From positions 192 to 64,191 of the forward strand of contig JAGBEY010000016.1 of assembly GCA_017936745.1 (NCBI GenBank): a stretch of 64,000 nt of DNA, read 5' to 3'. The notes beneath the pieces are model-generated. The model was not told where the DNA came from. It did not search any database and was given only the letters and a program-made list of their open reading frames with translations. This DNA is from Clostridia bacterium (GTDB lineage Bacteria > Bacillota > Clostridia > UMGS1840). The translations under genes and the position numbers were made by a program. Shown piece after piece: positions 2,444 to 50,049 of this stretch (within the stretch, counting starts at the first letter, position 1; each line of letters starts with the position of its first letter).

Positions 2444-3952
2444 GTGATAATGATGAAAATGAAAAAAATTGTAACTGTTTTATTAAGCGTAGTCATGATA
2501 GCATCAATGATTCCTACAGCTGTTTTTGCGACAGATTATATCCAGTCTGTAGTTGTGCTTGGTATTGATGATCCTGTAGACGGTGCACCGTATGACCGTT
2601 TTGCAAGTCTGCCATCAAATGCTACATATACAATTTTCAGCCAGCCGGAATGGTATGACGAAACCGACGAAAGATTCCTGGAAGCAGGCGATTCTTTTGA
2701 AAGTGGACACAGTTACACAGTAAGTGTGTGGCTGGAACCGAATAACGGATATGAGTTTGCCTCTACTACTACAACAACAGATGTAAAGGCATCCATAAAT
2801 GGAAAAACTGCAGAAGCAGGAAAAGCTTATGAATATCAACGATGGGCAATGGTTGTTGTGTCTTATACATTCCCAGCGGTTGAGAAGGCAAAACCGGTTG
2901 GCAGAGTTGAAATAGAAATATCCAAACCAAAGGCAGGTGAAACTGTATCCTACGATGCAAAACTTACAGGTGAGGGCGTTAGACTCATGACTCGTATTCC
3001 TGACCTTAAAGATGTATATAAAAATGCTATTAACGGTATAGAATGGGATGACGAAACCGCAAATCATAATATGAAAAAGGGAGAAACCTTTACGGTCGGT
3101 CACGAATATGGACTCAGCGTATTTATTGAGCCTGAAGCCGGGTACAAGCTTGATAATACAAACAAGGATTATTCTGTCACCATAAACGGTTCAAATGCAT
3201 TACCTATTGACGGATTTGGAGAGGATCGTCGGGGATATTATATCAGTTATGATTGTATAGGTGAGATTGGTGCTGTAAATTTCAACATTGTCGAACCGGA
3301 AGTTGGCTCTACTCCGTTTTTTAAAGGCTATGCGGAAAATGGCAATGTGGATTGGGAGGTAACAGAACTTTCCTATTTTGATAAGAGTACGAGAGAACAT
3401 CTTGAAGCATACGATACATTTGAAGAAGGACACTATTACGAAATTTATTTCCGTATGCAGGCAAAAGACGGATATGATTTTACCAAAGATGAAAATGGTA
3501 ATTTTGACCAAAGCAAAATTACCATAAACGGACACACGCCAAGCGACTCAGGCTATTTCTCCAATGTGTGGAGAACAGGTTTTGTTAAAAGCTGTTATGG
3601 TCCGCTTAAAAAGAATAGCGAGAATCTTCCGCTCACCCTGCGCGATGATGAACTCGTTAATGATATAGTGCAATCTATCTATCTCTATGATCTTGAAAAA
3701 CCCAAAGTGGGAGCCACTCCGGATTATATTACGGTATGGTTTAGTGAATACTATTATCCTGTGATGTCATCTACAGAAGTTGAAAAATGGGGAGTTTGTT
3801 GGAAAAACGTAACTGCCGGAAAAGACCTTGCGGTTGAAGACTCTGTCTTTGAGGAAGGTAATGAGTATGAAGCTCATATCAGAGTTACAACCAACTATAA
3901 AATGAAATCAAACGGAATCAAGGCATGTTTAATTCTAAAAAGAAGGTGCTAA
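2444..3952 (+). CDS. Secreted repeat protein with four to five roughly 100-aa modules
   Basis: Signal peptide MKMKKIVTVLLSVVMIASMIPTAVFA. Recurring module pattern: P(V/K)xGATP ... W.DE ... FE.GH.Y ... GY.F. The likely true start is the ATG at 2450-2459, after AGGTGA. Confidence 0.6.
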   Translation: MIMMKMKKIVTVLLSVVMIASMIPTAVFATDYIQSVVVLGIDDPVDGAPYDRFASLPSNATYTIFSQPEWYDETDERFLEAGDSFESGHSYTVSVWLEPNNGYEFASTTTTTDVKASINGKTAEAGKAYEYQRWAMVVVSYTFPAVEKAKPVGRVEIEISKPKAGETVSYDAKLTGEGVRLMTRIPDLKDVYKNAINGIEWDDETANHNMKKGETFTVGHEYGLSVFIEPEAGYKLDNTNKDYSVTINGSNALPIDGFGEDRRGYYISYDCIGEIGAVNFNIVEPEVGSTPFFKGYAENGNVDWEVTELSYFDKSTREHLEAYDTFEEGHYYEIYFRMQAKDGYDFTKDENGNFDQSKITINGHTPSDSGYFSNVWRTGFVKSCYGPLKKNSENLPLTLRDDELVNDIVQSIYLYDLEKPKVGATPDYITVWFSEYYYPVMSSTEVEKWGVCWKNVTAGKDLAVEDSVFEEGNEYEAHIRVTTNYKMKSNGIKACLILKRRC

Positions 3953-4252: not shown

Positions 4253-5224
4253 TTATTTCTTTTTCCGGTATCTGATACAACCCACAACTCCCAATACCGC
4301 AATCACGCCTACGGCAACTGACAGTGCGGGAATCCACAAGGAAGTGATTGGCGAAGTTTCTCCCGTATTTTTTGCATACAGTTCTTTTTGTACTCCATAC
4401 GGAAGAAACTCATACAAGGTTGCTAAATCCTCCCATTTCATGGTAAAATCGCAACCGGGGAGTCTTCCCATCATCTGATGGTAGTGATCCACCTCGCAAA
4501 ACCGAGATACCGAGGCGAAAGCTGTTTTGGAAAAGCCGTCATACAAGGTGTCCTGCCTGTGTGTTACTGTAATGTAAAGCATATCGTCTTCCCAATCCTC
4601 AGCTCCCATTCTTTTTAAAATGGTATTTTTCACGTCGGTAATCAACACATTGTCGGAAAACTTAAAAAAACGGTCTACATTGATATCATACTCCACACCG
4701 TTTAAGGAAATCGTGACTTTTTCAGCAATCTCACGACTGGTTTCCATATATTCACTTAAAGTGATTTTTCTTCCCACATTCACACGGGCAATTTCTGACA
4801 TTTCATATAAGCCTTCCTCTAAGTACGCTTGAATCCGTTCGGAAAATTCATCGGTAATCTGTAAGACGATTTCCCCATCTGTACGGCTTTTGACCTCATA
4901 GGCATAAACCACATCCCCGGGAAGAAAGCCAAAGAAATATTCTGCTCCCTTTTTAGGAGTATTTTTTGAAAAATAGCAGACCGGATAGGATTGCTCCACC
5001 TGAACCTCCACTTCCCCTTTAATTTTTAAAACAGGAAGCACAGTCACCTCTTTCACATCGGAACGATTTTCTTCTTTGGAGTCTGCAAAATCCACAAGCG
5101 TTCCGATAAAGACTTTCGCATCGTCTTCATAGCTAAAAGCTTCCGGAATATCTCCCGCCAATGCAGGCACACACAATGAAACAAGCATACAAATGATACC
5201 AAGTATTGAAATAATTTTTTTCAT
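4253..5224 (-). CDS. Hypothetical exported protein with a C-terminal membrane anchor
   Basis: N-terminal signal peptide MKKIISILGIICMLVSLCVPALAG. C-terminal TM helix WIPALSVAVGVIAVLGVVGCI followed by RYRKKK. Confidence 0.6.
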   Translation of the reverse strand: MKKIISILGIICMLVSLCVPALAGDIPEAFSYEDDAKVFIGTLVDFADSKEENRSDVKEVTVLPVLKIKGEVEVQVEQSYPVCYFSKNTPKKGAEYFFGFLPGDVVYAYEVKSRTDGEIVLQITDEFSERIQAYLEEGLYEMSEIARVNVGRKITLSEYMETSREIAEKVTISLNGVEYDINVDRFFKFSDNVLITDVKNTILKRMGAEDWEDDMLYITVTHRQDTLYDGFSKTAFASVSRFCEVDHYHQMMGRLPGCDFTMKWEDLATLYEFLPYGVQKELYAKNTGETSPITSLWIPALSVAVGVIAVLGVVGCIRYRKKK

Positions 5225-7339: not shown

Positions 7340-7864
7340 TTAAAGTTTCTTTTCCAATAACACCATATTGATGCCCGTCATGGAATGAAAGGTGCAAGGC
7401 ACAATTCCAATTTCACGGTAGCCCAGTTTTCGATACAGATTTCTGGCACGGACATTTCGTTCATTAGTATCCATCCGAAGATAAGGACACTCGTTTTCCA
7501 GGGCATACTGCTCATAAAAATCGACAAATTTCCTGCCATAGCCCTTTCCTGAAGCTCTGGTGGAAATCACAAGAGTGTGCAGTACCATAACCCTATCCGG
7601 CGGAGCATCATACTGCCAGTTTCCCAATGGGTATACGTCCATTTGCTCGTGATTGATAACAGCAGTACCCACCACCCCTGTTTCGTCCTCCGATACAAAT
7701 AAATCGTTTCGCAAATATGCCTCTTCGGCTGTTTTACGGGTGGGATAAATATTCCGGTTCCAACCGATGACTGCTTTCCCTTCTTCTTCCAAGATATGAT
7801 TTTCTAAATAAATTTCCCAGATTCTTTCAATATCTGTTTCTTGTGCTTTTCTGAATGTAAGCAT
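7340..7864 (-). CDS. GNAT family N-acetyltransferase
   Basis: Acetyl-CoA pocket-like [11 protein letters not shown]. 174 aa. Confidence 0.75.
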
Positions 7865-9610: not shown

Positions 9611-9644
9611 AAAAATAAAAAAATAGACTTTGCAATCTGCAAAG
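9611..9644 (-). terminator. Rho-independent terminator-like hairpin (minus strand)
   Basis: ctttgca-atc-tgcaaag (9628-9644). On the minus strand a T-rich run follows it (the complement of 9611-9623). Confidence 0.45.
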
Positions 9645-9732
9645 CCACCCTGACTGATGCCTGATTCTCCACCGGTCACCTTTTTAAAAACTGACAAGTC
9701 TATTATGAAAATAATAAAAAAAGGATTGATTT

Positions 9733-9764
9733 CAAAAAAAAAAGCACTTGCAATTTGCAAGTGC
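9733..9764 (-). terminator. Strong rho-independent terminator (minus strand)
   Basis: Near-perfect palindrome agcacttgcaa-t-ttgcaagtgct (9742-9764). On the minus strand a T9-10 run follows it. Confidence 0.7.
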
Positions 9765-9807
9765 TCTTCTTTGGGACAGCAGAATGATTAAGCTATTTGA
9801 CATTGAA

Positions 9808-9972
9808 TGAAATATCAACTTCGTTGATATGAAATAATCCTGACGGATTATGAAATATTTTTCTTTCAGAAAAATGTGAAATAAAATTTGCCTTTTCATA
9901 TTGCGTAGCAATATTTCATACACGGAGTGTATTTCATAGCGAAGCTATTTCACTTGCCAAAGGCAAATTTCA
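9808..9972. repeat. Mirror iteron-hairpin array A (TGAAATA x4, then TATTTCA x4-5)
   Basis: TGAAATA occurs at 9808, 9830, 9851 and 9877. Its reverse complement TATTTCA occurs at 9912, 9930 and 9946, with degenerate copies at 9892 and 9966. Spacers are individual hairpins: 9812-9830 (loop TTC), 9834-9851 (TGAC), 9857-9875 (TTTCA), 9898-9914 (GTA), 9918-9932 (GGA), 9936-9948 (GAA) and 9954-9966 (AAA). Confidence 0.8.
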
Positions 9973-9975
9973 TTG

Positions 9976-10007
9976 AAAAAGCGACTTGTCGAAACAAGTC
10001 GCTTTTT
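9976..10007 (-). terminator. Terminator of tRNA-Thr (bidirectional hairpin)
   Basis: gcgacttgt-cgaa-acaagtcgc is flanked by A5 and T5. It sits directly 3' of the tRNA on the minus strand. Confidence 0.75.
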
Positions 10008-10008
10008 C

Positions 10009-49105: not shown

Positions 49106-49687
49106 TTACTTATATGAGTTTTCTATCTGTTTTGAATACTCCCATTTTATTATACGAATATTATATCTTTCCAAGGCTTCATCAGCAGTAAATGCACTAT
49201 AACCCTTTTTCCCTTCTGGAGTAATGTATAAATAGTCAATCATATTGTCTTCTTCCGGTAAACGATTAAAATAACTATCAGGATCATTCATATAATACTC
49301 AGCATGTCCTGGATAAGAGCACAATTCTAAAACCTGATTACCCCAATCCGTGAAATCATTTTCATTGCTTAAATCTTTTAGACTAATCATCTCTTTTCCT
49401 GTACTTTTTATATACAATTTCCATTTTCGTTCTTTGCTACCACTATTAGTCCATTCAATACCATCATATTCGCATATAACTACATCTTCAATGGTTTTTA
49501 TTTCACCATCAAGCTCATATGTTAAAACAAACGGAAATTCGCCGTATGTAATTTCTGGTTCTGGCGGATTAGGTGCAAAATATGTAAGCATCAAAAATGC
49601 ACCTGAAATAACAAATAGATAAAACAAAGCGATTAACACACAGGCTACCGCTCCAATAATACCCGTTATAACCAATGTTTTTTTCAT
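49106..49687 (-). CDS. Orphan small membrane-anchored protein (cassette 2)
   Basis: MKKTLVITGIIGAVACVLIALFYLFVISGAFLMLTYF (one or two TM helices), then a soluble domain. ATG follows AAAGGAG. Confidence 0.6.
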   Translation of the reverse strand: MKKTLVITGIIGAVACVLIALFYLFVISGAFLMLTYFAPNPPEPEITYGEFPFVLTYELDGEIKTIEDVVICEYDGIEWTNSGSKERKWKLYIKSTGKEMISLKDLSNENDFTDWGNQVLELCSYPGHAEYYMNDPDSYFNRLPEEDNMIDYLYITPEGKKGYSAFTADEALERYNIRIIKWEYSKQIENSYK

Positions 49688-49694
49688 ATTTTAC

Positions 49695-49737
49695 TCCTTT
49701 CGACATTATTCGACATATCCATATTACTCGTGTCAAG
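49695..49737 (-). promoter_or_regulatory. Conserved 43-nt leader with two tandem perfect Spo0A boxes (cassette 2)
   Basis: The minus strand reads CTTGACACGAGTAATATGGATATGTCGAATAATGTCGAAAGGA, 41/43 identical to 48857-48899. TGTCGAA lies at 49715-49709 and 49705-49699. Confidence 0.6.
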
Positions 49738-49755: not shown

Positions 49756-49793
49756 ATGATATAATGATTTCAACTCTTATGAAATCATTATAT
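49756..49793. promoter_or_regulatory. 14-bp-stem hairpin built from two copies of the ATATAATGATTTCA module; contains an extended -10 on each strand
   Basis: atataatgatttca (49759-49772), actctta, then tgaaatcattatat (49780-49793). The plus strand reads TGaTATAAT at 49757-49765. The minus strand reads TATATAAT at 49793-49786. Confidence 0.5.
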
Positions 49794-49824
49794 AATTAGG
49801 TGACAGAAAAGATGCACCTTGTTG

Positions 49825-49996
49825 TCGATATGCAAACTTCGTTTGCTCGATATTTTTGCTACCGCAAAATCGATATGTTTTCGCTATGCTCAAACTCGAT
49901 ATGATATGAATTCTTGTCGCGTTAGCGACATATCGAGTGCGACAGCACATATCGAGTCCGCAAGACATATCGAGAATTCGTCAGAATTCATATCGA
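49825..49996. repeat. Mirror iteron-hairpin array B (TCGATAT x4, then ATATCGA x4)
   Basis: TCGATAT occurs at 49825, 49847, 49870 and 49896. ATATCGA occurs at 49930, 49949, 49967 and 49990. Spacer hairpins: 49832-49846 (loop TTC), 49854-49869 (TACC), 49915-49930 (GTTA), 49937-49948 (GACA), 49956-49966 (weak) and 49974-49989 (GTCA). A further hairpin, aagc-ttc-gctt, lies at 50004-50014. Confidence 0.8.
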
Positions 49997-50020
49997 CGAT
50001 TTCAAGCTTCGCTTAAAATC

Positions 50021-50049
50021 ATTATATCATACCAAAATCAAAATAGCAA
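50021..50049 (-). promoter_or_regulatory. Strong sigma-A-type promoter firing leftward into array B
   Basis: The minus strand reads TTGCTA (50049-50044), a 17-nt spacer that ends in TGa, then TATAAT (50026-50021). TATAATGATTTT is identical to the -10 and discriminator of the gdhA promoter in this window. Confidence 0.65.

Follow-up and report, generated by a model that had tools for sequence, protein, structure and literature searches.

The closest described relative of the element reported here is Gut-1, an RNA motif found by Weinberg et al. in 2010 (PMC2864571) in human-gut metagenomes only, which its discoverers regarded as certainly RNA and as "probably not" cis-regulatory, and for which they offered no function. 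It has been listed ever since as a well-supported RNA motif with no organism, partner, or function. We analyzed a 64,000-nucleotide stretch of a Clostridia bacterium genome (contig JAGBEY010000016.1 of assembly GCA_017936745.1), hereafter the window, in which a noncoding repeat array at positions 49825-49996, array B, carries four copies of the heptamer TCGATAT followed by four copies of its reverse complement, ATATCGA. Like Gut-1, array B combines 7-nt linkers with short variable hairpins, often with CUUCG-type loops, and shares the gut habitat of uncultured gut bacteria. Unlike the published motif, which is 77 nt long and has three hairpins, the element described here extends over ~180 nt and includes a mirrored second half (X'), a long-range helix (the M-helix), a 5' hairpin (H0), and an association with a protein-coding gene.

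The gene in question encodes a member of the PF05635 family, which resembles Avd, the accessory protein of diversity-generating retroelements (DGRs) (PMC10053308). Proteins of PF05635/TIGR02436 are very common in bacterial genomes and are understood only as Avd in DGRs. In the DGR of a Bordetella phage, the spacer RNA has an 11-bp stem-loop, capped by a tetraloop, that is held by all five Avd protomers via flipped-out bases, and stem-loops of the DGR type are predicted in 207 of 278 DGRs (bioRxiv 10.1101/2023.10.23.563531). PF05635 open reading frames (ORFs) also ride in the selfish, RNase III-excised intervening sequence (IVS) of the 23S rRNA of Coxiella (PMC4990558). The reading of array B that we favor, while regarding it as an even call, is that it is a single gene or leader for a structured RNA of ~180-200 nt transcribed from the minus strand, a variant of Gut-1 that would act as a stem-loop platform for Avd-like proteins.

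A polar array of linkers and hairpins

Array B is a real repeat array. Its linkers begin exactly where a preliminary description of the window had placed them (Table 1), in steps of 22, 23, and 26 bp for TCGATAT and then of 19, 18, and 23 bp for ATATCGA, and they account for four of the 10 TCGATAT copies and four of the five ATATCGA copies in the 64-kb window. Three copies separated by gaps of 8-24 nt were matched four times in the window and not once in 100 dinucleotide-preserving shuffles. The spacer hairpins first reported (gcaaac/gtttgc, ttttgc/gcaaaa, gtcgc/gcgac, gtgc/gcac, and gaattc/gaattc) were all found, and two weaker spacers also form hairpins (gtc-cgcaa-gac and gttt..gc-tat-gc..aaac), the latter containing, when read on the minus strand, an internal loop of tandem G.A. 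Array B folds better than its shuffles on either strand (z-scores of -6.4 and -4.9), and inspection of the loops of H1/H7, H2/H6, and H3/H5 revealed no loop-loop (kissing) complementarity. The parts of the element reach beyond the coordinates originally noted, to H0, a promoter-like site, and a conserved downstream block.

A sister element, array A, had been placed at 9808-9972 as a second copy of the same blueprint. Both points are borne out, as TGAAAT occurs there four times and is followed by four copies of ATTTCA, and a covariance model built from loci of the array B type (R1, described below) gives array A minus- and plus-strand scores of 68.9 and 33.5 bits, respectively. A scan for six-mers in at least three copies followed by at least three reverse complements found no third array in the window, poly-A/T runs aside.

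Table 1. Features of arrays A and B in the window (linkers are X in the 5' half and X' in the 3' half; array B is listed from 5' to 3' on its sense strand, the minus strand).
Feature	Position	Strand	Description
P1, promoter-like site	50021..50049	-	TTGCTA, 17 nt, TATAAT; TG before the -10 element (extended -10); points into the array
H0, 5' hairpin	49998..50020	-	gattttaagc-GAA-gcttgaaatc; ends 1 nt before X1; read and folded
5' half	49930..49996	-	X = UCGAUAU
X1	49990-49996	-	
H1	49974-49989	-	
X2	49967-49973	-	
H2	49956-49966	-	
X3	49949-49955	-	
H3	49937-49948	-	
X4	49930-49936	-	
H4, apical hairpin	49916..49929	-	gtcgc-UAAC-gcgac; a hairpin is at the H4 position in all parsed arrays
Segment M	49903..49914	-	AGAAUUCAUAUC; copy of the H1 3' arm plus AUAUC
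3' half	49825..49902	-	X' = AUAUCGA
X'1	49896-49902	-	
H5	49877-49895	-	
X'2	49870-49876	-	
H6	49854-49869	-	
X'3	49847-49853	-	
H7	49832-49846	-	
X'4	49825-49831	-	CAA follows
Conserved downstream block	49756..49824	-	small hairpin ggug..cacc and 17-bp AT-rich hairpin (49756-49796) with TATAAT in its stem (inverted repeat I2)
193-amino-acid (aa) protein gene	49106..49687	-	N-terminal hydrophobic segment; no family match; not PF05635
Array A	9804..9975	-	linker UGAAAU(A); lies between the tRNA-Thr terminator (9976-10008, serving as H0) and its own terminator (9736-9772)

The array is far from private to this genome. When one genome per species was scanned for TCGATAT in three spaced copies, at least 120 loci were returned. 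About half of those listed are from metagenome-assembled genomes (MAGs) of gut and rumen Clostridia (Oscillospiraceae, Acutalibacteraceae, Christensenellaceae, and 'Eubacteriales'), where hairpins make up the spacers and a count of exactly four X before four X' is very common; this four-plus-four architecture is present in dozens of such MAGs. Given hairpins return at given positions across loci, with compensatory changes, and because of this positional homology the element is polar and not symmetric. The 'mirror' array of the preliminary description thus keeps its pattern of four repeats and four reverse complements and loses its symmetry, the minus strand being the sense strand. In strains of one species (L121-L124) the array copies are identical. 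Of 119 pattern matches on viral contigs, mirror-type arrays were present only in L225, L236, and L242, and the others look like chance or coding repeats.

Model R1 was built from 26 TCGATAT and GCGATAT arrays, with the window copies left out. It matches array B from 49822 to 49998 on the minus strand over model positions 1-182 with 158.7 bits (E 3e-37), scores 88.2 bits on the plus strand, and finds nothing in the window beyond arrays A and B. Loci at the Gut-1 threshold are matched as well (L200 at 93 bits, L194 at 91.6, and L187 at 68.1). Searched against Rfam, array B gives no match to Gut-1 (RF01706) even at E <= 10, falling short of the gathering score of 50 bits, and permissive thresholds yield noise-level matches only (miRNA, CRISPR-DR, and the like, with CRISPR-DR at E 9.1). 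Array A reaches 56.4 bits for Gut-1 at 9908-9975 on the minus strand (cut-off 50) and, at a looser threshold, 42.8 bits at 9801-9861 on the plus strand. The claim that no known repeat or noncoding RNA class fits these arrays therefore does not hold: array A falls into Rfam Gut-1, and array B shares its architecture but has a different linker.

The correspondence is with the 5' half of array B, which matches the Rfam Gut-1 unit in having four 7-nt linkers and three variable, covarying hairpins. Its linker, (C)UCGAUAU(G), departs from the Gut-1 consensus GUGAAAU; the GAUAU core is common to members with GUGAUAU and GCGAUAU, and the first two positions differ. The Stockholm file of Weinberg et al. 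contains GUGAUAU and GCGAUAU members, and its unannotated 3' flanks hold a half with four copies of AUAUCAC as well as the central segment M. Because the X' half and M lie in these flanks, the 77-nt Rfam Gut-1 model, as judged from that alignment, is only the 5' half of a ~180-nt element. It is very probable, given the shared architecture, that array B belongs to the Gut-1-type family as a linker variant invisible to the Rfam model, and it is best filed as a variant and extension of this known orphan family rather than as something categorically new. What is new is that the Rfam motif would be half of a larger, polar, two-state element, and that the family, owing to variation of the linker sequence, extends well beyond what the model can find; further linkers in the loci we fetched include GTGAAGT, AGCTAAA, CAATTCA, ATGAATT, and TGATATG.

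Two classes of DNA repeat bear comparison with this architecture. Plasmid iterons and partition arrays are likewise noncoding clusters of short direct and inverted repeats at a spacing of roughly 20 bp. Unlike iterons, which conserve 17-22 bp with regular phasing and accompany rep or par genes, the arrays described here conserve 7-8 nt per unit and have covarying hairpins as spacers. The suggestion of a double-stranded iteron array is not supported, given these short units, an unphased spacing of ~14-45 bp, and the lack of a rep or par gene nearby. A clustered regularly interspaced short palindromic repeat (CRISPR) array was also rejected as a candidate, its direct repeats being 23-50 nt long, of one orientation, and interspersed with unique spacers of similar length; the repeats here have 7-8 nt, half of them are inverted, and the 'spacers' are hairpins of 11-19 nt.

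Conserved pairing and two exclusive folds

The structure was assessed statistically in 51 arrays aligned with R1, a fit that inflates the numbers somewhat and with which a result from 27 arrays aligned with MAFFT agrees. In the 51-array alignment, 96.5% of cells are paired versus 78.0% in shuffles (none of 500 reaches the observed value), and double (compensatory) changes occur in 38 of 52 pairs. Sliding the 3' partners by 1-3 columns lowers pairing to 25-46%. Every pair of H1, H2, and H3 shows double changes, and H5-H7 covary too. The RNAalifold consensus of the 27 arrays consists of H1, H2, H3, H5, H6, and H7 together with X1:X'4, X2:X'3, X3:X'2, and X4:X'1, with compensatory changes in 30 of 52 pairs. 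Base 1 of the linker shifts together in all X and X' of an array (UA in 34-38 cases, GC in 10, and AU in 0-1 per linker pair). Two ideas of the preliminary description gain from these results: its rod of stacked four-way junctions, formed by pairing of X with X', is both the RNAalifold consensus and the minimum-free-energy (MFE) fold, and the excess of paired cells and compensatory pairs supports its view that the structure is selected in a single-stranded state.

A second pairing cuts across this rod. Segment M is complementary in 12 of 12 positions to 49983-49994, which comprise the last five nucleotides of X1 and the 5' arm of H1 (inverted repeat I4), and the resulting 12-bp M-helix crosses every X:X' helix. 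In the 51 arrays the M-helix is 96.2% paired versus 84.9% in shuffles (0 of 500), with compensatory changes in nine of its 12 pairs, and a permutation test gives 6.78 versus 5.72 +/- 0.11. Five arrays have TCGAGAT as X1 and ATCTC as the tail of M while X'4 is still ATATCGA; therefore, X1 covaries with M and not with X'4. Because both use the 5' arm of H1, H1 and the M-helix are mutually exclusive. Covariation thus shows two conserved, mutually exclusive sets of predicted pairings, H1 with the X:X' rod on the one hand and the M-helix on the other, and the exclusion suggests a conformational switch. As M would be transcribed before the X' half, the M-helix may form first and then be displaced as the rod closes, whether in a single passage or in a switch between two states.

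A minus-strand RNA is favored because the M-helix, the tandem G.A mismatches in H5, and the excess of G.U in the 3' half are strand-specific. H5 of array B reads GUUU-GA-GC AUA GC-GA-AAAC, and by a strict test tandem GA/GA is present in the H5 of 16 of the 51 arrays, with covarying outer stems. The ratio of G.U to A.C in the 3' half is 12 to 1, which favors folding of the minus strand. On this evidence we consider it likely that the element functions as RNA, with a predicted form in which one 7-8-nt linker, repeated as four X and four X', connects a series of eight short hairpins.

A number of observations weigh against this reading, which is drawn at every locus from sequence comparison. The M state lies on average 7.3 kcal/mol above the nested MFE fold by nearest-neighbor energies. 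The predicted transcription start of the promoter-like site P1 falls inside the outer stem of H0. The hairpin stems are almost free of G.U (~22 of roughly 1240 cells), and in the 5' half the ratio of G.U to A.C is 10 to 9. The loops of the two halves are reverse-complementary in type, C(UUC)G and UYNC in the 5' half and C(GAA)G and GNRA in the 3' half, because of which both strands carry the same grammar; a single-strand transcript has no need of such symmetry, and even the antisense strand reaches 88 bits. Each of the last two observations would fit the main rival explanation, a role at the level of DNA, in which short sites lie between extrudable palindromes and both strands are used, in a control region, a site of recombination or insertion, or a single-stranded DNA structure. 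There, a co-evolving protein, possibly the PF05635 product, would recognize the 7-8-mers in both orientations. The C(GAA)G triloops point the same way, as mini-hairpins of this kind, such as GCGAAGC, are reportedly unusually stable in DNA according to work by Hirao; the inner part of H0 in array B is a GCGAAGC mini-hairpin. We nevertheless consider a DNA-level role unlikely, since the linkers are spaced by 14-45 bp without helical phasing, at 4-7 bp the stems are short for extruding a cruciform, and neither the M-helix with its compensation between X1 and the M tail, nor the tandem G.A of H5, nor the 12-to-1 ratio of G.U has a meaning in duplex DNA.

The same mirrored halves could be explained by two convergent small-RNA genes of the Gut-1 type, one per strand, each reading X-hairpin-X-hairpin-X-hairpin-X and meeting in the middle of the array. 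One half of array A is indeed matched by Rfam Gut-1 on the plus strand and the other on the minus strand, and L200 is matched on both; the strand that reads X has C(UUC)G loops, rich in pyrimidines, in both halves; half-arrays stand alone at some loci (for example, L005, L040, L042, and L070); and TGATATAAT motifs point inward on both sides of array B. What makes this arrangement highly improbable in our view is that covariation of the M-helix ties the extreme 5' end to the center on one strand, and that the full-length model prefers that strand by 70 bits. Moreover, most loci have a promoter, a tRNA gene, or a gene end on one side and a terminator or a ribosome-binding site (RBS) on the other, the left-hand TGATATAAT in the window is a hairpin arm without a -35 element, and the array center has no terminator.

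Arrays upstream of PF05635 genes

In an all-against-all BLAST of ORFs from 62 TCGATAT loci, no neighbor was common to more than five loci, and a small cluster of ORFs of ~116 aa was found directly downstream of arrays. These array-adjacent proteins match PF05635 (23S_rRNA_IVP; E 2.5e-22), TIGR02436 ('four helix bundle protein'; E 1.6e-25), and PDB entry 2RLD (five chains; E 4e-35); bAvd gave no match to the PF05635 protein at E <= 0.01. The reverse test began from the protein. A metagenome scan with an alignment of five of the proteins (A1) returned 484 relatives, of which 80 loci were kept, giving 37 non-redundant upstream regions. Of these, 30 contain a mirror array by a strict k-mer test, and 31 have an R1 match at E <= 1e-5 just upstream of the gene and always on its strand; the remaining regions hold mostly visibly degenerate arrays, with L145 partial only. 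The linkers vary by locus (TCGATAT, GCGATAT, ACGATAT, GTGATAT, GTGAAAT, and others), and in each of them X' matches X. An array therefore lies directly upstream of almost all genes in one PF05635 clade, which provides the RNA with its first testable partner. A search of the accessible literature found no paper linking Gut-1 to the PF05635 family.

Gene and array are joined in two layouts. In the first, seen at TCGATAT and GCGATAT loci, X'4 is followed after 3-15 nt by CAAAAGGAG and the start codon, and the end of an rlmCD gene upstream often reaches into H0. The second is that of Gut-1 proper, with GUGAAAU or GUGAUAU linkers, where a tRNA, 5S, or 6S gene is followed by a terminator, the array, a strong promoter (for example, TTGAAA-17-TATAAT with TG, scoring 11/12), and the PF05635 gene; Rfam Gut-1 matches were found between tRNA, 5S, or 6S genes and PF05635 genes.

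Seven loci show the order rlmCD, array, PF05635 gene (L129, L131, L135, L136, L064, L073, and L084), with H0 overlapping the last codons of rlmCD, a gene for a 23S rRNA uracil methyltransferase, and with an extra hairpin between M and X'1. At the end of a stable-RNA cluster in L188, a tRNA, 6S RNA, and a second tRNA precede a Gut-1 array (959-1140) and its PF05635 gene, and in L150 a 5S rRNA and a tRNA precede the array (240-435) and gene. Such positions suggest co-transcription with stable-RNA operons or insertion beside them.

The linkage has limits that count against the favored reading. No PF05635 gene was found in the 64 kb of the window when its ORFs were compared with a profile of the five A1 proteins, and among the 120 TCGATAT loci listed only six have such a gene within ~8 kb. 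The linkage thus runs in one direction only, from gene to array, and arrays A and B are orphans. A single genome can hold several linker types, which sits awkwardly with the idea of one sequence-specific binder. At the Gut-1 proper loci, the array has no promoter of its own and is not the proximal leader of the mRNA, as a promoter lies between, and it ends at the -35 element of that PF05635 promoter. Because few arrays, and none in the window, have a PF05635 gene, the case for protein binding is made from one-way linkage only; binding of the array by the PF05635 protein is possible, and we lean somewhat against it.

The gene-linked loci also bear on a role in DNA. In its favor, Gut-1 proper arrays follow a terminator and end exactly at the -35 element, and linker type tracks the phylogeny of the PF05635 proteins. 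Against a DNA role, all 31 gene-linked arrays matched by R1 (31/31) are co-oriented with the gene, one and the same strand carries terminators after X'4 and promoters or tRNA genes ahead of H0, and no recombinase, rep, or transposase gene is among the conserved neighbors.

Avd and its RNA offer the nearest model for such a pair. As in the DGR system, a tetraloop-capped stem-loop RNA would be encoded beside a gene for a four-helix bundle of the Avd fold, the Avd grip itself having been shown for DGR only. Unlike the DGR RNA, which has one 9-11-bp stem-loop with flipped-out bases and is accompanied by a reverse transcriptase (RT) and by template and variable repeats (TR/VR), the arrays have eight hairpins of 4-7 bp. 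A test for DGRs found no conserved neighbor across the 62 genome loci. In flanks of ~1.5 kb around PF05635 genes at 26 loci there was no conserved RT or recombinase and only rlmCD in a few, no Pfam scan for RT having been run. The 23S rRNA IVSs of Coxiella and Leptospira (PMC4990558) likewise combine a PF05635 gene with structured RNA in or beside stable-RNA operons, and the arrays here follow tRNA, 5S, and 6S genes. Unlike those sequences, which form one long RNase III-cleaved stem in helix 25 or 45, the arrays are intergenic, are built of linkers and mini-hairpins, and have no 23S context that we could see.

A further resemblance is to type III toxin-antitoxin loci. Systems of the ToxIN type have near-identical direct repeats of 34-45 nt, a terminator, and an endoribonuclease toxin gene. 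Like them, the gene-linked loci place an RNA repeat array directly upstream of a small protein gene, and the RNA is proposed to bind an oligomer. We rejected this candidate because the units here differ in sequence, half of them are inverted, and the linked protein, a four-helix bundle of PF05635, matches nothing in PADLOC; neighboring proteins gave no PADLOC match either.

Functional readings and genomic settings

If array B is indeed an RNA platform, a multivalent array of stem-loops would be bound by an Avd-like oligomer, and exchange between H1 with the rod and the M-helix would set the surfaces that are exposed. An array beside a PF05635 gene might then be an autoregulatory leader or an assembly site, whereas orphan arrays such as A and B might be free-standing small RNAs that bind or titrate a protein of the PF05635 type. 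A more ambitious version, that arrays and stand-alone Avd-like PF05635 proteins form an unrecognized and widespread ribonucleoprotein system of gut Clostridia, we put forward only tentatively and think unlikely. In such a system, the eight linkers would co-evolve as a set, the switch between M-helix and rod would load or release pentameric barrels of four-helix bundles, and the unit of gene and RNA would settle beside stable-RNA genes, much as PF05635 ORFs have within 23S rRNA IVSs, with the orphans as trans partners or sponges. Were it true, it would give a first function both to Gut-1 RNA and to the members of PF05635 outside DGRs.

The signals around array B are those of a transcription unit. 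P1 scores 10/12 with TG in a promoter scan, with a predicted start ~7 nt downstream, within H0. The distance from TATAAT to H0 is the same in L052 (TTGCAA-17-TATAAT), L075, L020, and L111. Nearly every homologous locus has a hairpin abutting X1, a role that the terminator of the tRNA fills at tRNA-linked loci, and at many loci an intrinsic terminator follows 5-40 nt after X'4. At nine of 80 arrays, array A included, a co-oriented tRNA gene lies 32-40 nt upstream, with eight tRNA identities among them; the tRNA-Thr gene of array A is 34 nt upstream on the same strand.

No canonical terminator was found in the conserved downstream block of array B (49756-49824), which lies just upstream of the promoter and RBS region that the 193-aa gene has of its own. 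The gene may be co-transcribed with array B, and array B may influence it. This arrangement, together with the mutual exclusion of two conserved helices and the 3-15 nt that separate X'4 from the RBS of the next gene at TCGATAT and GCGATAT loci, would suit a cis-acting 5' leader, an attenuator or sensor for the downstream gene (here that of the 193-aa protein) in which H1 and the M-helix switch without need of a protein partner. We hold this to be very unlikely, however, because at many copies a terminator closes the element and no gene follows, the downstream genes are mutually unrelated apart from PF05635, and it is the linkers and the stem geometry that are conserved, not a core resembling a ligand pocket. 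Sequestration of the RBS is evident in neither fold.

The settings of the arrays also bring up a selfish or mobile element or its remnant, similar to a miniature inverted-repeat transposable element or to an IVS, which with or without a PF05635 gene would reside beside stable-RNA genes and terminators and have no host function. Contexts vary widely among close relatives, tRNA genes of eight identities precede the nine tRNA-linked arrays, L084, L099, and L090 contain duplicates of the array, contigs called viral carry a few copies, and PF05635 ORFs have a selfish precedent in the Coxiella IVS (PMC4990558). Array B itself is flanked by a 19-nt inverted repeat, between the downstream block and a site at 50013-50031. 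This repeat is not common to other loci, however, no target-site duplication was seen, and neither a transposase nor an integrase is a conserved neighbor. Copies within a genome differ in linker and stems, the two in the window differing in the linker and in all stems, and the pervasive compensatory change implies long-term purifying selection on structure. We therefore regard a purely selfish element as quite unlikely, and retain the RNA platform as the preferred reading.

Two arrangements of the arrays sit less easily with that preference and would suit a DNA-level role. Circularly permuted arrays, with four X' and then four X separated by 5-25 nt, occur in L025/L051, L098 (7791-7933), L118 (7388-7563), and the viral L236 (1428-1571), and have no obvious M segment. 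Near-identical pairs of arrays flank blocks of genes at L084 (4506-4682 and 6169-6345) and L099 (570-747 and 4987-5162), the enclosed block being an HD-domain gene in L084 and three genes with an S-adenosylmethionine (SAM) riboswitch in L099. These pairs suggest duplication or a cassette-like insertion between arrays.

In the window, the neighbors of array B are a gene for an SLH-domain protein and an ORF without a family match. The downstream block is kept in L075 and L111, where it precedes another array, and in the window it resembles a 'promoter plus H0' module that no array follows. Two TTCGACA heptads, which on the minus strand read TGTCGAA and resemble a Spo0A box, stand 10 bp apart at 49700-49716, flanked by a TTGACA hexamer on one side and by the RBS of the 193-aa gene on the other. 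The resemblance of the linker TCGATAT to TCGACAT at 49700 and 49710 had raised the idea of a Spo0A box, which was dropped as unsupported. Downstream of array A, minus-strand terminators at 9772..9736 and 9646..9626 enclose ~90 nt without an ORF, possibly an unannotated small RNA.

Other sequence features recur beside arrays elsewhere. A hairpin motif, gagacaaggggacggttctRttgtctt, lies ~40 nt upstream of half-arrays in L005 (~3150-3215) and L042 (~1690-1750) and has no Rfam match at E <= 0.01. A conserved block of ~100 nt with a strong terminator abuts the 3' ends of arrays in convergent orientation in L036, L091, L097 (~4350-4520), and L037 (~7690-7815); this block, searched in its L097 copy, has no Rfam match and may be another unannotated RNA gene. 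Contiguous runs of the heptamer GGAATKC adjoin arrays in L021 (~460-560) and L090 (~480-520 and ~880-920). In L019, L042, L075, L090, and L111, arrays or half-arrays that differ in linker follow one another in tandem on one strand.

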